From: Candidatus Diapherotrites archaeon CG08_land_8_20_14_0_20_30_16
GTDB taxonomy: Archaea; Iainarchaeota; Iainarchaeia; Iainarchaeales; 0-14-0-20-30-16
DNA length: 10,028 nt
Direction of reading: 5' to 3'
Assembly: GCA_002779075.1 (NCBI GenBank)
Contig: PEXK01000008.1
Location: 1-10,028 of the forward strand
Both the position numbers and the translations under genes were made by a program. Positions 235 through 10,028 of this stretch are shown here, piece after piece. How positions within the stretch are numbered: position 1 is the stretch's first letter; each line of letters starts with the position of its first letter. The notes beneath the pieces were generated by a model, which saw nothing but the letters and a program-made list of their open reading frames with translations, was not told where the DNA came from and made no database searches.

Positions 235-1329
235 ATGAAAATTATATTAATTGCAGGTACTAGACCTAATTTTATGAAAATTGCGCCTTTGTTAAAGGTT
301 TTAGAGTCTAATGATAACAAAAACTATTTTGATGTTAAATTAGTACATACAGGTCAACATTATGATCCTAATATGTCAGAAATATTTTTCCAAGAATTAG
401 CTATTAGAAAACCTGACTTTTATTTGGGTGTTGGTTCAGGAACACATGCTGAAATATCTGGTAAAATAATGATGGATTTAGAAAAGATACTTTTAGTTGA
501 AAAACCAGATTTGATTGTAGTTGTTGGAGATGTAGATTCAACAATGGCTAGTGCAATAAGCGCTAAGAAATTACATATTAAAGTTTGTCATGTTGAAGCA
601 GGACTAAGAAGTTATAATGAACAAATGACTGAAGAATGGAATAGAGTAATAACTGATCACATTTCTAATTTATTATTTGTAACTGAAGAATCAGGGCCTA
701 AAAATTTAAAAAAAGAAGGAATAAAGAAGAATGTTTATTTTGTTGGAAATGTAATGATCGATAGTTTATTTAATTGTTTAGATAGAGCAAAGCAAAAAGA
801 TACTTTACAAAGATTAGGTTTGCAAGAAAAGAAATTTATTTTTTGGACTATGCATAGACCAGAAACTGTTGATTATAAAGAATTATTACAAAAAGGTATG
901 AATATATTATATGAAGTTCAAAAGAAAATTAAAGTGGTTTGGCCTATTCATCCTAGAACTAAAAAAAGATTGCAAGAATTTGGAATTAAAACTGATTTTG
1001 AAAATGTTGTTTTTACTGAGCCTTTTGGTTATTTGGATAGTGTTAATTTAGAATTTAACGCTTTATGTATTCTTACTGATTCTGGCGGGATGCAAGAAGA
1101 AGCTAGTGCCTTGAATGTTCCTTGTTTAACTATGAGACCTCAAACTGAAAGACCAATAACTGTTAAATTAGGTACAAATATTATTGTTAATTTAAACAAG
1201 AAATTAATACTAAAAAATTTAGATTTAATATTAACTGGAAAATATCCTAAAATGCATTCTAATATCCCTTTATGGGATGGGAAAGCGAGTGAAAGAATTG
1301 TTCAAATCTTAAATGGGTTGAAACAATGA
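235..1329 (+). CDS. wecB: UDP-N-acetylglucosamine 2-epimerase (non-hydrolysing), WecB/MnaA family
   Basis: 364-aa ORF. The blocks MKIILIAGTRPNFMKIAPL, HTGQHYD, GVGSGTHAE, PDLIVVVGDVDSTMA and HVEAGLRSYN..EEWNRVITDH are hallmarks of this family. An SD-like GAAGGGGT sits at 223-230, just upstream of ATG 235. Confidence 0.9.
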   Translation: MKIILIAGTRPNFMKIAPLLKVLESNDNKNYFDVKLVHTGQHYDPNMSEIFFQELAIRKPDFYLGVGSGTHAEISGKIMMDLEKILLVEKPDLIVVVGDVDSTMASAISAKKLHIKVCHVEAGLRSYNEQMTEEWNRVITDHISNLLFVTEESGPKNLKKEGIKKNVYFVGNVMIDSLFNCLDRAKQKDTLQRLGLQEKKFIFWTMHRPETVDYKELLQKGMNILYEVQKKIKVVWPIHPRTKKRLQEFGIKTDFENVVFTEPFGYLDSVNLEFNALCILTDSGGMQEEASALNVPCLTMRPQTERPITVKLGTNIIVNLNKKLILKNLDLILTGKYPKMHSNIPLWDGKASERIVQILNGLKQ

Positions 1330-2591
1330 AGATTTGTGTTATTGGGCTAGGATATGTAGGGTTGCCAATTTATTTTCAAGCCAAATTCAAAGGCTTTGAT
1401 GTATTTGGGTTTGATGTTAACAAAAAGAAAATAGAAGAATTGAAAGATGGAATAACTGAAATAAAAGGTAGAATTCCTGAACAAGGTTTTGCAAAGTTTA
1501 AAGAAAATGATTTTACTTTTGATGTGACAAGACTAAAGGAGGCAGATGTTTATATTATCTGTGTTCCTACTCCAATAGATGAATTCAAAAACCCAGATTA
1601 TAGTTTTGTTATTGGGGCAACACAGTTAGTCATAGATAATGGAAAAAAAGGGTGTTTGGTTTGTGAAGAATCAACTGTTAATCCAGGAACTATGGAAGAA
1701 ATAGTAATGCCTCTTTTTGATAAAGCAAATTGGATAGTTGATAAAGATTATCATTTAGTTCATTGTCCGGAGAGAATTGACCCAGGAAATGAAAACTATG
1801 AGGTTGATAATATTCCTAGATGTATTGGTGGTTTGACTGAAAAATCTTTGGAAAAAGGTTATGAATTATATTCTAAACTGATTGATGCCCCTATTAAGAA
1901 AATGAGTTCTATAAGAGCAGCTGAAATGACTAAAATTGTAGAGAACACTTTTAGAGATGTAAATATTGCTTATGTGAATCAATTGGCAAAGATTGCAGAT
2001 GTAATTGATGTGGATATAAAAGAAGTAATTGAAGGTGCTGCAACTAAGCCTTATGCATTTATGCCTCATTGGCCTGGAATAGGTATTGGTGGGCATTGTA
2101 TTCCTGTTGATCCATATTATTTAATTGAATATTCAAAACACAAAGGTTTGGACCCCAAATTTTTATCTTTATCTAGGGAAGTAAATGATTCTATGCCAAA
2201 ATATAGTGTTGGTAAAGTTCAAGAAATCTTAAATGAATTAGGAAAGCCAATGAAAGATACAAAAGTTCTGATTTTGGGTTATTCTTATAAAGCAAATGTA
2301 AGCGATGAAAGAGAAACTCCTGCAAAAGAAGTAATTAAGATATTAAAAGAAAGGCTTGCAGATGTAAAAGTATATGATCCCTTTATATTAAACAAATCAG
2401 AATTTAATAATTTGCAAGACGCATTGAATTGGTCTGAAGCAGTAATTTTATGTACTGCTCATAATGAATTTGTTGATAATGTTCCTAAATTAATTAAAAA
2501 TAATGTTATTTTATTATTTGATGGTAGAAATGTATTTGACAAAGAATTATTTGTTAAAAAAGGAATTAGATATAAAGGTATAGGACGATAA
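1326..2591 (+). CDS. wecC: Nucleotide-sugar dehydrogenase of the UDP-glucose/GDP-mannose dehydrogenase superfamily, probably UDP-N-acetyl-D-mannosamine dehydrogenase (WecC/Cap5O-like)
   Basis: 421-aa ORF overlapping the wecB stop by 4 nt (ATGA at 1326-1329). It has an N-terminal Rossmann motif MKICVIGLGYVGLP, the catalytic-Cys block GIGIGGHCIPVDPYYL, and a C-terminal ILGYSYKANVSDERETPA. Substrate is inferred only from pairing with the 2-epimerase. Confidence 0.8.
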   Translation: MKICVIGLGYVGLPIYFQAKFKGFDVFGFDVNKKKIEELKDGITEIKGRIPEQGFAKFKENDFTFDVTRLKEADVYIICVPTPIDEFKNPDYSFVIGATQLVIDNGKKGCLVCEESTVNPGTMEEIVMPLFDKANWIVDKDYHLVHCPERIDPGNENYEVDNIPRCIGGLTEKSLEKGYELYSKLIDAPIKKMSSIRAAEMTKIVENTFRDVNIAYVNQLAKIADVIDVDIKEVIEGAATKPYAFMPHWPGIGIGGHCIPVDPYYLIEYSKHKGLDPKFLSLSREVNDSMPKYSVGKVQEILNELGKPMKDTKVLILGYSYKANVSDERETPAKEVIKILKERLADVKVYDPFILNKSEFNNLQDALNWSEAVILCTAHNEFVDNVPKLIKNNVILLFDGRNVFDKELFVKKGIRYKGIGR

Positions 2592-2596
2592 TTAAA

Positions 2597-2657
2597 ATTA
2601 TTCCAACAACTTACTAATAGATCTATTGTGATTCAAATTGAAAACAACTTTTGCAAA
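2597..2657 (-). repeat. Displaced copy A of the prs 3-prime end (pseudo C-terminus ..FAKVVFNLNHNRSISKLLE-stop)
   Basis: 55/61 nt identical to 6344-6404 with no indels. Reading frame and TAA stop are retained. It starts 5 nt after the wecC stop. Confidence 0.85.
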
Positions 2658-2854
2658 TCCTTTATAACTAATTTGCATTATTTGATAATTTAACCCAAGA
2701 TTATAAACATAATAAATGGCAATTTATAATCATTTAAGCGAAAACACATATAAATATATTATTTATAGGATTATAATGCGAGAACGCCAACCTAAAGGTA
2801 CACCAGGGTAGAATCCATTTATAAACAAATCCTATATTAAATACTTTTTGTTAT

Positions 2855-2907
2855 TTATAAGCATATTTCCGAAAAGGTATATAAACATTTCGATTTTATG
2901 CTTATAA
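2855..2907 (+). promoter_or_regulatory. 53-bp palindrome centred on a TATA-like box (arms TTATAAGCATA / TATGCTTATAA; inner CGAAA / TTTCG); candidate operator/promoter copy 1
   Basis: Perfect 11-bp inverted arms at 2855-2865 and 2897-2907, symmetric about base 2881 inside GGTATATAAAC. It contains the 23-bp core CGAAAAGGTATATAAACATTTCG (2870-2892), which recurs exactly at 2976-2998. Confidence 0.5.
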
Positions 2908-2965
2908 TTAAAATTGTAAGTGGTTTTAGACATAATTTCTTAAACATAAAAACCAATAATTTATT

Positions 2966-3008
2966 ATCATTTGAGCGAAAAGGTATATAAACATTTCGCT
3001 CATATGAT
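2966..3008 (+). promoter_or_regulatory. Promoter/operator of the 547-aa gene: BRE/TATA-like CGAAAAGGTATATAAAC embedded in a 43-bp palindrome
   Basis: The arms ATCATTTGAGCGAAA (2966-2980) and TTTCGCTCATATGAT (2994-3008) are reverse complements with one mismatch. They are symmetric about base 2987 in TATATAA, which lies 27 nt upstream of ATG 3014. That spacing is typical of an archaeal TATA box driving a leaderless mRNA. Confidence 0.55.
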
Positions 3009-3013
3009 TTTAT

Positions 3014-4657
3014 ATGAACAATTCTACAATAAAAGTTTTGGAAGTAATATTGCGAAAAAATTATGAATCTTTAAAAGAATTTAATCGAGACCTTGGTTTA
3101 AGTTTAAGTACCATAAGTGAAGCAATATTGAATTTAAAGAATTATAGCTTTGAATTTGATAACTCAGGCTATAAACTAATATCTAATAAAATGCTTACTA
3201 ATTTTAATAATTTATTAAATAATTATAATTTAAATATATTTAAAGATGCCAGAGAATCTATTTTGTATTCGTTGCTATTTTTTAATAAATTAAATGATAT
3301 ATCTGGATATGTTAATCTTTCAGATATTCACATTTTACGAAATTTAAATTATTTGCGTGAAAAAGGTGTAGTATATATAAAAGATGAAAGTTATTTTCTG
3401 AAAGAAGATCTAAAGCCAATTATTAAAGATATTTTTGAAACTATAATTGCCAAAAGCCAAGAATCAGATGCAGAATTAATAATAAAAAAAGGAATTATTT
3501 TTAAAATACTCCCTAAAGGTAAATTGTTACAAGGGAAATTAACCGCATTTTCTAAATTTAATGATTATGGGTTAATTTATTATACTGTATCTGATTATGG
3601 TGTAGATACCAAAGAACAATTATCAATAGAAGATATTTTTGTTCACGCTTTATTATTATCTAATTCTAAAAAAGATCTTGTATTATGTACTTGTTTTTAT
3701 CTAAAAAATAAATATAGATTAAATTTGACAAAATTAAGAAAGAAATTATCGCATTTTGAAATATATCCTGTTTATGAAAAAATGATTGATTATATTCGTA
3801 CGGGTGCTGATTTTGGTTTATTCTTGCCAAAGAAAGAATTTATCAGAATTTTAAATGAATATGACTTGTCTTTAGATCTCTTAACTCATAAAGAAAATTT
3901 AATCTCTTTTTTTGAAGATTTAGAAAAATTAATAAATATCCCGTTGAAAGTTTATTTGATTGGTGGTTGTAATTTAGTATTGAGGAATTTAAAGAATGTT
4001 ACTAAAGATATTGACGTTATTGTAAACTCCGAAACAGAATATCTTTATTTAGAGAAAATACTATTATCATTACAATTTGTTAGAGATACTAAACTTTCAA
4101 ATCAGACTGAACATTTACGAATAAGAATGGTTTTTAAGAAAGATAATAATCAAATAGATGTTTTTGTAAAAAGAGTTATGAATCAAATATTTTTAAATGA
4201 TTCTATGATTAAAAAAAGCGAAACAAAAAATTTTGGAAAATTAGATATAAAATTAGTTTCTTTAGAAGATATAATTTTATTTAAAGCAATTGCTGGTAGA
4301 GAAGGGGATATCGAAGATATATCTCGAATTATTGAAAGAAAAGATATAAATTGGAACTATCTATATAATCAATTCATATTACAATTTGATAACTCTAATG
4401 ATTTGTTATTTTTATCAATATTAGATACATTTGATATTATTAATAAAACAAATCCAATTCCAATTTTAAGTAAAATAGAGAGATTTGTTTTGGAAAAATC
4501 AATATTATTTGTTTGCAAAACTCCTAAATCCATTCCTAAAATTAAAAAAATATTGGAATTCCCAGATCATACTATAAGAAATGTAATAAATAAGCAAGTA
4601 AAAGACGGATTATTAAAATCAATTCTGGGAAAACCTATGTTATTCCAAACAATTTAA
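3014..4657 (+). CDS. Multi-wHTH / nucleotidyltransferase fusion protein (AbiEi-like regulator region fused to a polymerase-beta-fold NTase, plus a C-terminal wHTH); family not recognised
   Basis: 547-aa ORF. Two N-terminal wHTH-like segments are present (..LKEFNRDLGLSLSTISEAILNLK.., ..NLSDIHILRNLNYLREKGVVYIKD..). The NTase signature is IGGCNLVLRNLKNVTKDIDVIV (nt 3959-4024; G-G/S x9-13 D-x-D), followed by a third acidic motif QIDVFV and a helical LEDIILFKAIAGREGDIEDISRII. The C-terminus is wHTH-like (..IPKIKKILEFPDHTIRNVINKQVKDGLLK..). The protein is colinear with the 276-aa plus 230-aa pair downstream. Confidence 0.6.
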   Translation: MNNSTIKVLEVILRKNYESLKEFNRDLGLSLSTISEAILNLKNYSFEFDNSGYKLISNKMLTNFNNLLNNYNLNIFKDARESILYSLLFFNKLNDISGYVNLSDIHILRNLNYLREKGVVYIKDESYFLKEDLKPIIKDIFETIIAKSQESDAELIIKKGIIFKILPKGKLLQGKLTAFSKFNDYGLIYYTVSDYGVDTKEQLSIEDIFVHALLLSNSKKDLVLCTCFYLKNKYRLNLTKLRKKLSHFEIYPVYEKMIDYIRTGADFGLFLPKKEFIRILNEYDLSLDLLTHKENLISFFEDLEKLINIPLKVYLIGGCNLVLRNLKNVTKDIDVIVNSETEYLYLEKILLSLQFVRDTKLSNQTEHLRIRMVFKKDNNQIDVFVKRVMNQIFLNDSMIKKSETKNFGKLDIKLVSLEDIILFKAIAGREGDIEDISRIIERKDINWNYLYNQFILQFDNSNDLLFLSILDTFDIINKTNPIPILSKIERFVLEKSILFVCKTPKSIPKIKKILEFPDHTIRNVINKQVKDGLLKSILGKPMLFQTI

Positions 4658-4708
4658 ATAAAATTGGCAAAACATGGAATTCTTTATAAACAATTTCACT
4701 TTTTATTA

Positions 4709-4780
4709 ATTATTCCAACAACTTACTGATTGAAACATTGTGATTTAGATTGAAAATAACTTTTGCAAAGTCTTTTGCAA
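4709..4780 (-). repeat. Displaced copy B of the prs 3-prime end (pseudo C-terminus ..AKDFAKVIFNLNHNVSISKLLE-stop)
   Basis: 68/72 nt identical to 6344-6415 (59/61 over the first 61) with no indels. Frame and TAA stop are retained. It ends in an inverted repeat, TTGCAAA-GTCT-TTTGCAA. Confidence 0.9.
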
Positions 4781-4801
4781 TGCTAATCTCTATTTTGGAC
4801 C

Positions 4802-4855
4802 TAAGTATACCAGTATAGGAGTTATTTATAAGCTTTTCCTATCTTAGTATACTTA
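4802..4855 (+). promoter_or_regulatory. Promoter/operator of cassette 2: concentric inverted repeats centred on TTATTTATAAGC
   Basis: The outer arms TAAGTATAC (4802-4810) / GTATACTTA (4847-4855) and inner arms ATAGGA (4815-4820) / TCCTAT (4837-4842) share one symmetry centre at 4828/4829, inside TTTATAAG. That centre is 26-27 nt upstream of ATG 4855. The 12-mer TTATTTATAAGC also occurs at 2851-2862. Confidence 0.5.
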
Positions 4856-5685
4856 TGTTAAAGAAAGGAGAATTAAAAGTACTTTTGGAATTAATAAGTA
4901 AAAAGCAAAAAGATTTTAAATTAAGTGCATCTCAAAGGTATCTTTTAATGAATTCTTTAAAAACTAAAGGTGTTTTACTTAAGAATTCAACAATATGTTC
5001 TGATTTGATCTTAAAAATGTTGTTACTATGTGAGAAATACCCCAAATTACAAGAATTAATCTGTGATGGAAAATTATCAATATTATTTATTCTAATCAAT
5101 CCAAAATCTTTAGATGACCTAATTTTTTTAACACAATACACAAAAGCATATATATTACGAGTAATCAAAGAATCAAAAAGAATAGGTTTGGTAAGAAAGA
5201 TTGAAAACAAATATGTTCTCAATTCGGAAATATGGCAAGAATTTATTTCTATTTTGCCACATTATATGAGTATTTTCATGCAAGAATATAATGTTAATAA
5301 AGAAGCAAATCTTTATTATATTTCACCAAAGAAAATATTGTTTTCGTCTAAAAAGAAATATTCAGATTATTATATTGCTTCATTTTCTATATTACATAAA
5401 CACAATTTATTGATATATACTTTGGAAGAATATTATTCAAACATAAAAACAGAACAAATATTAGATATATTTAGAGACTTGCTTCTGGTTTTAGAAAAAG
5501 ATACTGATCATAGATTAAAAACCATTGCAGTTTTGTTTTATAAAAAATATGAATCATTATTAAAAGATCTAAATCTTTCTTTTGTAAATGATGTTAAATT
5601 AGTTTTAAAAGGACAAAAAGTTGCTGGTTTTTTGCCATTAAAGGAAATAATTGAAAAGGGCGAAGTTTATGATATCGAATTTTGA
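4855..5685 (+). CDS. wHTH-containing protein, paralogue of the N-terminal half of the 547-aa protein (AbiEi-like candidate regulator/antitoxin)
   Basis: 276-aa ORF. wHTH-like segments are ..SASQRYLLMNSLKTKGVLLKN.. and ..TKAYILRVIKESKRIGLVRKIENKYVL... Blocks EQILDIFRDLLLV, LFYKKY and GFLPLKEIIEKGEVYDI align with LSIEDIFVHALLL, CFYLKNKY and LFLPKKEFIRILNEYDL of the 547-aa protein. The ATG sits at leaderless distance from a TATA-like box. Confidence 0.6.
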   Translation: MLKKGELKVLLELISKKQKDFKLSASQRYLLMNSLKTKGVLLKNSTICSDLILKMLLLCEKYPKLQELICDGKLSILFILINPKSLDDLIFLTQYTKAYILRVIKESKRIGLVRKIENKYVLNSEIWQEFISILPHYMSIFMQEYNVNKEANLYYISPKKILFSSKKKYSDYYIASFSILHKHNLLIYTLEEYYSNIKTEQILDIFRDLLLVLEKDTDHRLKTIAVLFYKKYESLLKDLNLSFVNDVKLVLKGQKVAGFLPLKEIIEKGEVYDIEF

Positions 5686-6343
5686 ATCAATAAAATCTTT
5701 ATTTGTAGAATTGGATAAAAATGTAGAATCAAAAATAAATGTTTATATGCTGGGTGGCGGGGCATTATTGTTTTATGGTTCAAAACCAGAAACCAAAGAT
5801 ATTGATTTAGTTTGTGATGCAAATGATTATTTCAAATTATATTTTGCTTTAAAAAGAATTGGGTTTATTGCAAAAAATCCTTCAAGAGGGTATTTGAGAT
5901 TAAATATTGCAGAAATATTAGTGCGAGATGATTTTAGAATTGATTTATTTAATAATAAAGTTTGTGGTAATTTATCCTTAAGCGACACTATAAAAACAAG
6001 AAGTAAATTAGCTATTGATCTAAAAAATCTTAAACTTTATTGTTTTTCTCCAGAAGATATTTTTGTTTTTAAATCAATTACAGAAAGAGATGGAGATATA
6101 TTAGATTCAGAAAAAATAATTCAAATAGGTATAGATTGGAGTATTATATATTCTGAGATTTTATCACAAATCAAAGAGCATGACAAAGAAGCATGGGTTA
6201 CTTATTTTGTTGGAAGATTAGAAGCACTCATAGATAAAGGATTTGATATACCAATTTACAAAGATTCTAGAAAATTGGCAGAAGAATATTACGATCAGTT
6301 AGAATCAAGAATAACAAAGCTTAAAAAACAAAAGAGAATGTAG
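5651..6343 (+). CDS. Polymerase-beta-fold nucleotidyltransferase (AbiEii / DUF-type minimal NTase-like), paralogue of the C-terminal half of the 547-aa protein
   Basis: The ORF opens at TTG 5651, but the likely start is ATG 5669 (or entry by frameshift from the upstream ORF). The NTase signature is LGGGALLFYGSKPETKDIDLVC (nt 5750-5815), with a third acidic motif RIDLFN and PEDIFVFKSITERDGDILDSEKII matching the fused paralogue. It overlaps the upstream ORF by 17-35 nt. Its TAG stop at 6341-6343 lies 1 nt from the prs stop. Confidence 0.65.
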   Translation: MKRAKFMISNFESIKSLFVELDKNVESKINVYMLGGGALLFYGSKPETKDIDLVCDANDYFKLYFALKRIGFIAKNPSRGYLRLNIAEILVRDDFRIDLFNNKVCGNLSLSDTIKTRSKLAIDLKNLKLYCFSPEDIFVFKSITERDGDILDSEKIIQIGIDWSIIYSEILSQIKEHDKEAWVTYFVGRLEALIDKGFDIPIYKDSRKLAEEYYDQLESRITKLKKQKRM

Positions 6344-6415
6344 ATTATTCCAACAACTTACTGATTGAAACATTGTGATTCAGATTGAAAACAACTTTTG
6401 CAAAATATTTTGCAA
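6344..6415 (-). repeat. Functional copy C of the repeat, i.e. the authentic 3-prime end of prs (..VAKYFAKVVFNLNHNVSISKLLE-stop)
   Basis: This is the reference copy for repeats A and B and lies inside the prs ORF. It ends in a perfect 18-bp palindrome, TTGCAAAATATTTTGCAA (6398-6415). Confidence 0.9.
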
Positions 6416-7364
6416 CCGAAACTTCTTTGTACCATTTTGTGTTATTAACAAAACTATCTGGTTGATGAACAGCATCTGTTCCAATTACTAATTCAATAAT
6501 GTCGTCTTTATGTGCGTTTTCCATTAATTGTTTTGCTTCTCCATCTAAAAATGCTAAAGAGCAGGCAACATAGATTTTGTTTGCTTCATTTTCTTTAAGA
6601 GTTTTTGCAACATTAATTATTGTGCCACCAGTTGCAATCATATCATCAACAATTAAACAATCTTGCCCTTGAACTTCACCAATTAAAATTGTTTTTGCAA
6701 CCGTGCTTGGTTTAGAATAATCTCTTTGTTTGTAAACAATTGCTAATGGCCTTTGTAATTTCTCAGCATATTTTTGTGCATTCTTGACAGCACCAGTATC
6801 AGGAGCAATAACAGTTAAATTACTCAAATCTATGTTTGATTGAACATATTCGCAAATATTCTTTTTTGCATTTAATATTTCTAAAATTGCTTTTCGAAAA
6901 AAGCCTACAGTAGCAGGATTGTGAATATCTAAAGTAATAACTCTATTTGCCCCTAATTCTTCAAGTTCTCTTGCAACCAAAGCACAGGTAATACATTCTC
7001 TTGTTATTGCTTTGTCTTGACGAGCATAAGGAAAACTAGGCAAAATAACAGTAACACAGGATGCATCGCTTCTTCGAGCACTATCAATTGCTGTTTTCAA
7101 AGACATTATGTTTTCATCAATACTATATGGCAGATCCTTATTTGCAACATCTTGAATAATGTAAATATCTAATCCTCTTATACTGTTCAAAATTTCTGTT
7201 TTTATTTCTCTATTTGCAAAATGAGTTTCATTTGTTTTAATGTATTTGTAATTTATAGGGGTAGATTCTTTTTCAAAAATTTCAGGTAAGCAATTTAATA
7301 TTTTTTCAGCAAAAGGTTTTCCAGATTCACAAGCAATTATTCCTATTTCACCACGTGTATTCAA
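6345..7364 (-). CDS. prs: Ribose-phosphate pyrophosphokinase (PRPP synthetase)
   Basis: 339-aa ORF with Prs blocks IRGLDIYIIQ, PYARQDK, ITLDIHNP..GFF, VIAPDTGAVKNAQKYAEKL, the PRPP-binding loop LIVDDMIATGGTI and the C-terminal ..HNVSISKLLE. The start is TTG, preceded on the coding strand by a strong SD AGGTGAT (plus-strand 7368-7374) with a 3-nt spacer. Only 15 nt separate it from the HEPN stop. Confidence 0.9.
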   Translation of the reverse strand: MNTRGEIGIIACESGKPFAEKILNCLPEIFEKESTPINYKYIKTNETHFANREIKTEILNSIRGLDIYIIQDVANKDLPYSIDENIMSLKTAIDSARRSDASCVTVILPSFPYARQDKAITRECITCALVARELEELGANRVITLDIHNPATVGFFRKAILEILNAKKNICEYVQSNIDLSNLTVIAPDTGAVKNAQKYAEKLQRPLAIVYKQRDYSKPSTVAKTILIGEVQGQDCLIVDDMIATGGTIINVAKTLKENEANKIYVACSLAFLDGEAKQLMENAHKDDIIELVIGTDAVHQPDSFVNNTKWYKEVSVAKYFAKVVFNLNHNVSISKLLE

Positions 7365-7379
7365 AATATCACCTAATAC

Positions 7380-7790
7380 TCAGAGTTTGTGTTTTAAATT
7401 CGAGAACTCAATTGCAAAATCTAGAATCTCTTTTGCTACGTCTTCTGAATACACTGCATCATAATCTGCATCTTGTCTAGCATACATTGCTGCTTTGAAA
7501 TAAATTATATATTTTGATTCTAGCATTCGTTTTCTACAAAATTCGTCCAATAACAAATATAAAGCATAATGACTTTTTTCTCTATAACCCTTTTTGTAAA
7601 TTAATGCTCTTGCAATATGAAAAATACAATAATATGCTTGGATAATGCTCCATTTGTGGTTTCCATCTTCAAAAGATTCTTTTGCGTTTTTCAAATCTTT
7701 TTCAGATTCTTCCAATTCTTTATTAATCAGTTCGGGAGAACAAGATTCCACTTTCAACAAGCCATTATCAATCATTTCTTGAATATTCAT
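7380..7790 (-). CDS. HEPN domain protein, partner of the upstream MNT (HEPN/MNT toxin-antitoxin module)
   Basis: 136-aa all-helical ORF. WSIIQAYYCIFHIARALIYKKGYREKSHYAL and ARQDADYD..SEDVAKEILDFAIEF resemble the HEPN family paired with minimal nucleotidyltransferases. It has a 4-nt ATGA overlap with the MNT gene (7787-7790). Confidence 0.75.
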   Translation of the reverse strand: MNIQEMIDNGLLKVESCSPELINKELEESEKDLKNAKESFEDGNHKWSIIQAYYCIFHIARALIYKKGYREKSHYALYLLLDEFCRKRMLESKYIIYFKAAMYARQDADYDAVYSEDVAKEILDFAIEFSNLKHKL

Positions 7791-8320
7791 AATAATCTGA
7801 CCTTATTCTTTTCTAATTCTTTGTAAAATGCAGGATTCTTTTTTATCATACTAGCATATTCTAAAGGGGTTTTGCAAATTATATTTAAAGGGAGATTTAA
7901 CATTTTGAATTTAGATTCAACACCCCAGATTAAATTACGATTCTTTGTAACAATAAAAAGATCAATATCACTGTGTTTATCCGAAGTGCCTTTAGCGTAT
8001 GACCCAAATAAATATATTTCTAATTCTTTAGTTTTTAAATCTTTTAATAAAGTAGCAAATAAAAATATAAAATACGCTTTTTTTAGTAGAAAATATGCTT
8101 CAGATTCAATTACAGAGTAAAAATAAGCATTACCTTTTTTTTCTTTTGATATTAAATTACAATTACATAAAGACTCTAAAACTGTTAATAAGGTAACTTT
8201 GCTTTGCTTTGTTTGTTTTTGTATTTCTTTGTAACTTAAGTCTTTTGACTTATCGAAGAATATTTTCAATACGCTTAAATAAGAATTATTAAATAAAAAA
8301 TTTATTGTTCTTTTTTGCAT
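7787..8320 (-). CDS. Minimal nucleotidyltransferase (MNT) with an N-terminal wHTH extension
   Basis: 177-aa ORF. It carries the classic MNT signature LFGSYAKGTSDKHSDIDLFIV (G-S x10 D-x-D). The N-terminal ~90 aa look like a wHTH (LSYKEIQKQTKQSKVTLLTVLESLCNCNLISKEKKGNAYFYSV). It is the first gene of an apparent MNT-HEPN-prs operon. Confidence 0.8.
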   Translation of the reverse strand: MQKRTINFLFNNSYLSVLKIFFDKSKDLSYKEIQKQTKQSKVTLLTVLESLCNCNLISKEKKGNAYFYSVIESEAYFLLKKAYFIFLFATLLKDLKTKELEIYLFGSYAKGTSDKHSDIDLFIVTKNRNLIWGVESKFKMLNLPLNIICKTPLEYASMIKKNPAFYKELEKNKVRLL

Positions 8321-9367: not shown

Positions 9368-10028
9368 ATGTTGATAAATATGAATAAAGAAAATGCAATG
9401 GTTGTGTTTGAAGGAAAAAAGATTAGAAATCAATGGTATAATAATGAATGGTATTATTCTGTTATTGATGTAATTGGTATTTTAACAAATAGTGAAGATC
9501 CTAGAAATTATTGGAAAGTGTTAAAATATAGATTAAATGGAGAAGGTTCTGAGTCGGTTACAAAATGTAACCAACTGAAATTGCAAGCATCTGATGGTAA
9601 ATTTTATGAAACAGATTGTGCTAATACCCAAAATATGTTTCGAATAATTCAATCAATACCCTCTTTAAAAGCTGAACCGTTTAAGCTTTGGTTAGCCCAA
9701 ATAGGTTATGAAAGAATACAAGAAATAGAAAATCCAGAATTAGCACAAGATAGAGCTAAAGAATATTATGAATTAAAAGGTTATCCTAAAGATTGGGTTG
9801 ATAAAAGAGTAAGAGGTATTGCAATTAGGCAAGAATTAACTGATGAATGGAAAAATAGAGGAATAAAAGAAAATAGAGATTTTGCAATATTAACTAATGA
9901 AATCTCTAAAGCAACTTTTGATAAAACAATAGAAGAATACAAACAATTCAAAGGTTTGCCAAGCAAGAAAAATGCAAACTTAAGAGATCATATGACTGAT
10001 TGGGAATTGATATTAACAATGGTTGGAG
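9368..10028 (+). CDS. Bro-N domain protein (phage antirepressor / DinD-like family), 3-prime end beyond the window
   Basis: The frame is open from ATG 9368 (alternative ATG 9380) to the window edge; it is absent from the ORF track because no stop is reached. VVFEGKKIRNQWYNNEWYYSVIDVIGILTNSEDPRNYWKVLKYRL, LKLQASDGKFYETDCANTQNMFRIIQSIPSLKAEPFKLWLAQIGYERIQEIENPELA and RGIAIRQELTDEW match this widespread family closely. TTTATATAT at 9338-9346 is centred 26 nt upstream of ATG 9368. Confidence 0.8.
   Translation, partial: MLINMNKENAMVVFEGKKIRNQWYNNEWYYSVIDVIGILTNSEDPRNYWKVLKYRLNGEGSESVTKCNQLKLQASDGKFYETDCANTQNMFRIIQSIPSLKAEPFKLWLAQIGYERIQEIENPELAQDRAKEYYELKGYPKDWVDKRVRGIAIRQELTDEWKNRGIKENRDFAILTNEISKATFDKTIEEYKQFKGLPSKKNANLRDHMTDWELILTMVG

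Follow-up and report, generated by a model that had tools for sequence, protein, structure and literature searches.

Fused and split wHTH–nucleotidyltransferase modules in tandem att-like cassettes at the prs 3' end of a Diapherotrites archaeon

The window analyzed here, i.e., the whole stretch of 10,028 nucleotides at the start of contig PEXK01000008.1 from Candidatus Diapherotrites archaeon CG08_land_8_20_14_0_20_30_16, a member of DPANN, has a low GC content (21-33%) and carries two diverged versions of one gene module between the genes for UDP-glucose dehydrogenase (ugd) and phosphoribosyl pyrophosphate (PRPP) synthetase (prs). The module combines winged helix-turn-helix (wHTH) domains with a nucleotidyltransferase (NTase). 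In one version both parts are fused in a single open reading frame (ORF), ORF547, and in the other they are split between ORF276, which holds the N-half, and ORF230, which holds the NTase half (Table 1). That ORF547 is colinear with ORF276 plus ORF230 had been proposed in an earlier sequence-only reading of this DNA, and this was borne out: the three ORFs lie where they had been placed, and all peptides quoted for them occur in the translations. In BLASTP comparisons, residues 289-457 of ORF547 matched residues 7-173 of ORF230 with 29% identity over 170 residues (E=2e-17), and residues 78-215, which comprise wHTH2 and the next domain, matched residues 71-212 of ORF276 with 26% identity over 145 residues (E=6e-4). 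In a family alignment of 122 sequences, ORF230 retains all ten NTase-domain signature residues checked and ORF276 retains five of eight conserved middle-domain residues. The genes of the split module overlap by 35 nt with the TTG start of ORF230 at 5651 and by 17 nt with the ATG start at 5669, the latter in agreement with the 224-aa product of the gene callers. Two or three wHTH units had been counted in each regulator-bearing protein, and indeed ORF547 has three and ORF276 two. The extra C-terminal wHTH of ORF547 is likewise present, but it is not peculiar to the fused form, as some split NTases of ~270-284 aa also carry one.

The enzyme half was placed by Pfam in DUF6036/DUF2204, above the curated cut-offs, for residues 295-452 of ORF547 and residues 24-168 of ORF230. 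ORF547 scored 37.0 bits against DUF2204 (cut-off 20.3, E=3.4e-9) and 31.9 bits against DUF6036 (cut-off 23.6), while ORF230 scored 31.4 bits against DUF6036; the DUF6036 E-values for ORF547 and ORF230 were 1.4e-7 and 2e-7. An AlphaFold (AF2) model of ORF547 built from nine homologues reached a predicted local distance difference test score (pLDDT) of 88.5 but a predicted template modelling score (pTM) of only 0.54. With the NTase domain of this model, Foldseek retrieved TM1012 (2ewr/2fcl) and the NTase-like protein 5uvd with probability 1.0. The NTase signature of ORF547 consists of G317 G318-x13-D332xD334 followed by D382, and a helix further on reads K424-x4-R429-x2-D432-x2-D435. Conservation of these residues was scored in 115 diverse family members, where it amounted to 98% for both G317 and G318, 97% for D332, 99% for D334, 95% for D382, 99% for R429 and D432, and 100% for K424 and D435. 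Pfam, Foldseek, and the conserved signature thus agree with the original proposal that the two enzyme halves adopt the Pol-beta NTase fold and keep an intact active site, and the acidic GG..DxD residues, whose conservation among homologues it had singled out for checking, are kept in 95-99% of these relatives. The remark that the proteins match no nameable family has to be dropped, since DUF6036/DUF2204 covers the enzyme half and HVO_2833_C gives a sub-threshold Pfam match to the middle domain (residues 176-284 of ORF547).

Upstream of the NTase, the N-half is annotated as an ArsR/MarR regulator by NCBI, and homologues carry precomputed HVO_2833_C matches. The middle domain contains the near-invariant residues T177, F179, S180, H211, E275, and Y283. 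Modelled alone, it reached a pLDDT of 92.5 and a pTM of 0.88, and a Foldseek search of the PDB with this model returned no match (best E=0.45, probability <=0.1).

A profile search among 1.84 billion cluster representatives retrieved 2219 relatives at E<=1e-3, of which 317 passed E<=1e-30. Full-length fused proteins of 510-730 aa account for about 90 of these representatives, and others consist of the N-half only (~240-320 aa) or the NTase only (~190-290 aa). The family appears to be confined to archaea: all 34 matches in contigs from one genome per species were archaeal, with hosts among Iainarchaeia/Diapherotrites, Micrarchaeota, Woese-, Pace-, and Nanoarchaeota, Methanomassiliicoccaceae, ANME-1, Thermoplasmatales, and haloarchaea, and Thermococcus is also a host (on a plasmid of Thermococcus profundus). 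Domain-wise hidden Markov models (HMMs) identified the split form in 23 loci, in which an N-half gene of ~290 aa (wHTH, wHTH, middle domain) is followed by an NTase gene of ~218 aa and the two overlap or abut in most cases; the fused form with an added C-terminal wHTH was found in ~12 loci. The layout described for the window, with a regulator upstream of an overlapping NTase, therefore holds across the split loci. Wherever the contig includes upstream sequence, no NTase without an N-half was found and the order was constant. On a rough neighbor-joining tree of the NTase domain, about eight switches between fused and split forms are needed. Such repeated fusion and fission is strong evidence that the two halves act together, a conclusion already drawn from the side-by-side versions in the window. 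More than one copy per genome was found in the genome of the window and at L027 and L030, and ORF547 has a 53%-identical homologue in a related genome (L006). The family is already catalogued in Pfam (DUF6036, PF19502; DUF2204, PF09970; HVO_2833_C, PF24271), and NCBI names relatives "DUF6036 family nucleotidyltransferase". The description of the system as undescribed fails in this respect and stands in the functional one: the Pfam entries are names only, and the literature searched gives no function, partner, fusion/fission pattern, or cassette behavior. A search of PHROGs produced only a weak match of unknown function.

Each module has a private promoter, as had been claimed: palindromes of 57-61 bp carry a TATA box at the center of the dyad, and their sequences differ between the two modules. 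The palindrome in front of ORF547 extends up to the ATG, which suggests a leaderless transcript. The same palindrome-over-TATA design lies upstream of the L006 homologue, where the promoter sequence is also similar, as well as in L008 and L009, and it takes the form GTTGCA..TTTATATA..TGCAAC in the haloarchaeal plasmid copies. Autorepression by the wHTH protein is a natural inference from these predicted operators.

The two modules are bounded by three copies (R1, R2, and R3) of a 72-nt direct repeat with 81-94% identity, which supports their description as att-like cassettes. R1 and R2 share 81% identity over 72 nt, and R1 and R3 share 90% over 61 nt. The last ~23 codons of prs are encoded on the minus strand of every copy, and each keeps the in-frame stop. 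R1 lies 5 nt from the ugd stop, and R3 begins 1 nt past the ORF230 stop. The substitutions in the three copies preserve coding. Between R1 and R3, three are synonymous and the other three fall within one replaced codon, which suggests that each repeat copy formerly served as a coding tail. At the inner end of all three repeats there is an inverted repeat, TTGCAAA(N4-12)TTTGCAA, which reads TTGCAAA-GTCT-TTTGCAA in R2 and forms a perfect 18-bp palindrome in R3 (6398-6415, TTGCAAAATATTTTGCAA); it resembles a recombinase core site. Cassette A (2.1 kb) and cassette B (1.6 kb) each comprise an att copy, their own promoter, one module, and an att copy, and hold the module alone, with no integration or transfer genes. 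Three other origins of the repeats were considered. A diversity-generating retroelement was rejected, as the repeat copies do not differ specifically at adenines, prs does not belong to the targets of such elements, and the window has no reverse transcriptase. Integron attC sites were rejected as well, because the repeats fold no better than shuffled sequences (z -0.2 to -1.0). A long target-site duplication is disfavored, since the pseudo-copies differ mostly synonymously and keep in-frame stops, and stops are also kept in L011 and L026.

The adjacency of the two cassettes, their shared orientation, and their common repeat would also be expected if one cassette had been duplicated in situ, for instance by unequal crossing-over between att copies, and had then diverged with gene fission or fusion. 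We consider such a history extremely unlikely. The proteins are only 26-29% identical whereas the non-coding repeat copies are 81-94% identical, the promoters of the two modules are unrelated in sequence, and each NTase is closer to NTases of other organisms than to its neighbor; the nearest relatives of ORF230 are foreign split NTases with 40-44% identity, versus 29% with ORF547. Moreover, the L035 array sets a module cassette beside a cassette of unrelated cargo. Because the proteins are so much less alike than the repeats, and the closest relatives of ORF230 are foreign, two independent insertions fit better than duplication. As a separate observation, several independent assemblies of the window genome break at or near the att or promoter repeats (L005, L052, and the ends of L001/L004). 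L005 (JGI contig Ga0066650_10047277) runs from the second base of R1 to 37 nt past R2, and L052 terminates 4 nt past R1. These breaks could reflect either repeat-induced fragmentation or strain-level cassette variation.

Comparable cassettes occur elsewhere. Flanking direct repeats with E<1e-5 were detected at 7 of 26 loci in other genomes, against none of 55 controls, which were random segments of 1.7 kb taken from these loci. In L011 the repeat (32-38 nt) is the 3' end of a convergent CARDB-protein gene with the stop codon in both copies; in L022 (33 nt) it is the 3' half of a convergent tRNA-Met; in L026 (53-60 nt) it is the 3' end of an Lhr helicase gene, with three of four substitutions synonymous; and in L034 (40-43 nt) it is the 3' end of a peptidase C1 gene. 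In L035 there are three repeat copies (150-195 nt), which enclose a split module as well as a second cassette whose cargo, a Zn-ribbon repeat protein, is unrelated; L033 and L009 have repeats of 23 and 26 nt, respectively. The cassette of L034, from Micrarchaeota, also contains a gene for an HNH endonuclease of 204 aa (2265-2879) directly 3' of the NTase gene. The second cassette of L035 (5607-7190) encodes a 527-aa basic protein with ~10 tandem CxxC..CxxC zinc-ribbon units (Pfam Stc1, E=1.6e-10), and just outside this array lies a Fic-domain gene with an HPFxDANGRTGR motif.

The module is also found on larger mobile elements. With jackhmmer seeded with two haloarchaeal integrases, L019 was recognized as a 7-kb element in which tRNA-Asp, integrase, membrane protein, reverse transcriptase, a further gene, the module, and a tRNA repeat follow one another; the end repeat consists of 16 nt of the tRNA 3' end and lies 89 nt past the module. 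The integrase of L020 is directly upstream of the module, and tyrosine recombinases are also near the module in L021, L032, and L054 and ~5 kb from it on pHV4. The integrase elements of L019 and L020, both from DPANN-type genomes, carry a reverse transcriptase (RVT_1, E=1e-19) at 2548-3732 and 4101-5320 (two ORFs), respectively. In PLSDB, 93 plasmids carry the module, and those listed are haloarchaeal or from Thermococcus profundus. A 2.0-kb block made up of 270 nt of upstream sequence and both genes is 83-93% identical across ~10 haloarchaeal genera. Its neighbors vary by plasmid (IS200/605, TnpB, DUF262, amidase, Orc1/Cdc6), and the block has no sharp common ends and no flanking repeats. The variable surroundings expected of homologues are therefore seen in part: plasmids, integrase elements, cassettes, and one locus beside a genuine AbiE pair fit that expectation, but some homologues occupy housekeeping contexts.

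Since the module is the only or nearly the only gene between the att repeats in nine cassettes, it might itself be the mobility or replication engine of a mini-cassette, i.e., a DNA-binding and nucleotidyl-transfer protein that integrates, excises, or replicates an element of 1.6-2.4 kb. The tight spacing (57-100 nt upstream in most, 0-51 nt downstream), the three predicted DNA-binding domains of the protein, and the constancy of the module while the att sequence is different in each genome are in line with this idea. On the other hand, the module is lacking from neighboring repeat-bounded cassettes, whose cargo is unrelated (L035 cassette 2, L012), related modules sit on elements that have their own tyrosine integrase, flanking repeats are missing in most family members, and on plasmids the module adjoins normal Orc1/Cdc6 or PolB replication genes. 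Furthermore, the Pol-beta NTase fold is not known from any recombinase or Rep protein. We therefore judge an engine role very improbable, and it would be extremely surprising if the wHTH–NTase protein itself catalyzed integration.

The arrangement in the window is conceptually similar to known integrase-less elements. Cis-mobilizable elements (CIMEs), as in the ICESt1-type islands of Streptococcus, lack an integrase, keep attL/attR, and accrete in tandem at the 3' end of the target (PMC5704250). The units described here likewise lack an integrase and form a tandem stack beside the 3' end of a housekeeping gene, the tail of which is duplicated. They differ in their archaeal host, in their size of 1.6-2.4 kb with one tightly spaced module, and in that this minimal form recurs, with different att sites, in at least seven further lineages. 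A dedicated minimal element fits this recurrence better than random decay. Toxin–antitoxin (TA) cassettes of integrons are also compact one-operon units in tandem arrays with a recurring repeat and TA-looking cargo under its own promoter; in contrast, the repeat found here is the prs coding tail rather than an attC hairpin, and no IntI or attI was found.

The gene order had been compared with AbiE systems, in which a DUF1814 NTase with motifs I-IV is paired with a COG5340 antitoxin made up of a wHTH and a C-terminal domain (CTD) (Dy et al. 2014, PMC3985639). In AbiEii, motifs I/II read hGG-x15-R..DhD, motif III K..R, and motif IV +DxxD; motifs III and IV are required for toxicity and GTP binding, and their mutation abolishes toxicity (PMC3985639). 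The modules of the window resemble AbiE/MenAT in having a wHTH protein encoded directly upstream of, and overlapping, a Pol-beta-superfamily NTase, in the inverted repeats at the promoter, in hGG..DxD, a third acidic residue, and a C-terminal Lys/Arg/DxxD helix analogous to motifs III and IV, and in their carriage on mobile elements with a patchy multi-copy distribution (PMC3985639). However, the NTase belongs to DUF6036/DUF2204 and not to DUF1814, the GG–DxD spacing is 13 instead of 15, K and R are separated by x4 instead of x6, and conserved Lys327/Lys331 stand in place of the Arg of motif II. Where AbiEi has one wHTH and a CTD, the partner has a pair of wHTH domains followed by a middle domain for which the PDB gave no match, and single-chain fusions, often with a further C-terminal wHTH, are frequent in this archaea-only family. 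No matches to PF08843 (AbiEii/DUF1814, COG2253) or AbiEi-family Pfam models were obtained at E<=1, nor to PADLOC AbiE models at E<=10. In hhalign comparisons with an archaeal AbiE pair at L056, the NTase profile of the family aligned with AbiEii over a 40-column GG..DxD core only (probability 2.6%), and AbiEi aligned with the N-half over the wHTH alone (probability 34%). As HMM searches, PADLOC, profile alignment, and partner architecture were all negative, membership in AbiE was rejected. The pair at L056 (3120-4578) consists of an AbiEi-like gene and an AbiEii gene (PF08843) frameshifted into two overlapping ORFs, 250 nt downstream of the fused homologue P0009.

HEPN/MNT (HepT/MntA) systems of type VII are likewise two-gene modules with a nucleotidyltransferase (MNT, minimal nucleotidyltransferase), sometimes fused and abundant in archaea. 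In the modules of the window, by contrast, the NTase is larger and has the extra K/R/DxxD helix, and the partner is a multi-wHTH protein; no HEPN domain was found in ORF547, ORF276, or ORF230, and the HEPN gene at 7380-7790 has a wHTH-MNT partner of its own. A reversed, MntA-like polarity would make the NTase the controller, which would nucleotidylate the N-half (e.g., at Y283, T177, or S180) and thereby switch its DNA binding or a harmful activity. HEPN/MNT systems are reported to use such logic (PMC7641770). Near-invariant Thr, Ser, His, Glu, and Tyr residues in the middle domain, the frequent fusion that joins enzyme and putative substrate in one chain, and the presence of a classical wHTH-MNT/HEPN pair 1 kb away would all suit it. 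Even so, the fold of the middle domain is neither HEPN nor that of another known toxin, the K..R..DxxD helix of the NTase is typical of DUF1814 toxins and not of the minimal MNT layout, and the model, with its pTM of only 0.54, gives no structural support for conserved residues facing the active site. We regard this polarity as unlikely.

The best-supported reading is that the module is a mobile, autoregulated two-part NTase that serves as addiction- or abortive-infection-like cargo of archaeal plasmids and integrative elements. A TA-like role is made plausible by several features together: the order and overlap of the genes, palindromes centered on the TATA box, a location on plasmids and integrative elements, and the presence of several copies in one genome. 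The wHTH part, probably as a dimer, would bind the palindrome over its own TATA box and repress transcription. By analogy with the DUF1814 toxins AbiEii/MenT, the NTase would nucleotidylate a cellular target and arrest growth unless restrained by the N-half. Those toxins act on tRNA acceptor ends. The module may thus stabilize its carrier plasmids and integrative elements through addiction, or protect them through abortive infection, which would account for its survival as the only gene of minimal att-flanked cassettes. Site-specific integration would take place at the core site with the TTGCAAA..TTTGCAA inverted repeat through an integrase supplied in trans, for which the integrase-bearing elements that carry relatives give indirect support, and the prs-tail copy brought by the element would keep prs intact. 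Taken as a whole, the explanation that two integrase-less cassettes with a TA-like archaeal module were acquired independently at the prs 3' end stands, in our view, at an even balance between right and wrong.

Several findings weigh against it. Single-polypeptide forms are common, and they suit classical TA logic, which relies on differential stability, poorly. The large N-half (~290 aa) with its conserved polar residues T177/S180/H211/E275/Y283 suggests an activity or ligand site of its own. No tyrosine recombinase was found with the two archaeal integrase seeds in the window or in contigs L001-L005 of the same genome. Neither exact-protein look-ups of prs and ugd nor a scan of metagenomes for the att pattern led beyond the genome of the window, and they showed no empty prs–ugd site, no circle junction, and no other cassette content. 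Flanking repeats are absent from 19 of the 26 loci, and some homologues sit amid housekeeping genes without repeats (L006, L057). Searches of a phage collection and IMG/VR yielded no relatives and hence no direct link to viruses, and literature searches on DUF6036, DUF2204, HVO_2833, and the Pfam accessions yielded no paper on the family.

Housekeeping surroundings of this kind would suit an ordinary regulated enzyme, in which a wHTH factor controls a small-molecule or antibiotic-type NTase (KNTase/Lnu-like) with no part in addiction or defense, and in which the cassettes reflect horizontal transfer of a useful gene. The annotation of the N-half as an ArsR/MarR regulator and a weak NCBIfam similarity of ORF230 to the lincosamide NTase Lnu(E) (E=0.023) point the same way, but the latter scores 14.9 bits against a cut-off of 350. 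Repeated regulator–enzyme fusion with an extra C-terminal wHTH would be unusual for a repressor–enzyme pair. In addition, a single genome holds multiple, highly diverged copies, and the module, besides being enriched on plasmids and integrative elements, survives as the only cargo. An ordinary enzyme is thus quite improbable in our estimation.

Under the preferred reading of the module as TA-like or abortive-infection cargo, an archaea-specific branch would be added to the NTase toxins (AbiE/MenAT, HEPN/MNT). Few defense systems are recognized in DPANN and other archaea. A bolder version, which we put forward tentatively as possible rather than probable, is that these loci represent a new class of minimal archaeal integrative cassettes (1.6-2.4 kb; att, promoter, one module, att) that use the 3' ends of housekeeping genes or tRNAs as insertion sites, accumulate there in tandem, and rely on integrases in trans, and whose sole cargo is a new archaea-specific TA family with a DUF6036 toxin and a multi-wHTH partner bearing a neutralizing domain unseen in the PDB. 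Att-flanked single-module cassettes in seven other lineages, at different targets, would offer small archaeal genomes a simple, unstudied route to stack selfish or defensive genes with the target gene undisrupted. The many natural fused versions could reveal how neutralization works within one chain, and cultivable carriers (Haloferax volcanii pHV4 and the Thermococcus profundus plasmid) make the hypothesis testable. The interest lies mainly in the recurrent minimal cassette architecture, which is the most interesting part, in the archaea-only distribution, and in a partner domain without a solved structural relative.

Table 1. Features of the window and domains of ORF547. Positions are nucleotides of the window unless marked aa; z-scores compare folding with that of shuffled sequences.
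Feature	Position	Strand	Remarks
UDP-GlcNAc 2-epimerase	235-1329		
UDP-glucose dehydrogenase, ugd	1326-2591		
R1, displaced pseudo-copy of prs 3' end	2597-2668	-	outer boundary of cassette A; encodes ..FAKVVFNLNHNRSISKLLE*
Degenerate third palindrome copy	2722-2775		
Palindromic TATA-box operator/promoter, upstream copy (predicted)	2851-2911	+	24-nt arms, 13-nt center AGGTATATAAACA, z=-3.9
ORF547 promoter (predicted)	2959-3015	+	57-bp palindrome up to ATG, TATA box central, z=-5.3
ORF547	3014-4657	+	fused module
wHTH1 of ORF547	aa 1-70		ArsR/HlyU/MarR/Lrp-like by PDB profile search
wHTH2 of ORF547	aa 80-136		ArsR/HlyU/MarR/Lrp-like by PDB profile search
Middle domain of ORF547	aa 150-290		HVO_2833_C type
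NTase of ORF547	aa 291-460		DUF6036/DUF2204
C-terminal wHTH of ORF547	aa 486-548		ArsR/HlyU/MarR/Lrp-like by PDB profile search
R2, second pseudo-copy of prs 3' end	4709-4780	-	junction of cassettes A and B; encodes ..FAKVIFNLNHNVSISKLLE*
Split-module promoter (predicted)	4799-4858	+	~60-bp palindrome up to ATG, TATA box TTATTTATAA central, z=-2.7
ORF276	4855-5685	+	N-half of split module: wHTH1, wHTH2, diverged middle domain
ORF230	5651-6343	+	NTase half of split module; ATG start possible at 5669; helical tail, without C-terminal wHTH
R3, functional prs 3' end	6344-6415	-	att copy adjoining the target gene; encodes FAKVVFNLNHNVSISKLLE*
PRPP synthetase, prs	6345-7364	-	
HEPN gene	7380-7790	-	
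wHTH-MNT gene	7787-8320	-	

Beside prs, the window contains a wHTH-fused minimal nucleotidyltransferase gene overlapping the HEPN gene (7380-8320, minus strand). The pair matches the PADLOC candidate PDC-M05 (M05A, E=9e-17; M05B, E=3e-6) and, weakly, NCBIfam MntA, and it is a second NTase toxin–antitoxin pair unrelated to ORF547, ORF276, and ORF230. Rfam and tRNA scans of the window found nothing, the scan for intrinsic terminators returned none, and a sigma-70 promoter scan gave 33 sites versus 31.5 expected, which is uninformative as the host is an archaeon. Beyond the HEPN/wHTH-MNT pair, the gene order of the window continues with pyruvate:ferredoxin oxidoreductase (POR) genes. Inserted in the POR operon, between porD and porA, is a gene with a Bro-N domain (285 aa), which leaves the window at its end (9368-10028) and corresponds to 6498-7355 of L001; two small ORFs, and not the Bro-N gene, occupy this position in L006. 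The repeat-bounded cassette of L012 is also bordered by a Bro-N gene. Downstream of the window in the same genome (L001, 8549-10576), the thiamine pyrophosphate (TPP)-binding POR beta subunit has 675 aa versus 321 aa in L006, and its faint match to LAGLIDADG_3 suggests an intein or homing-endonuclease insertion.

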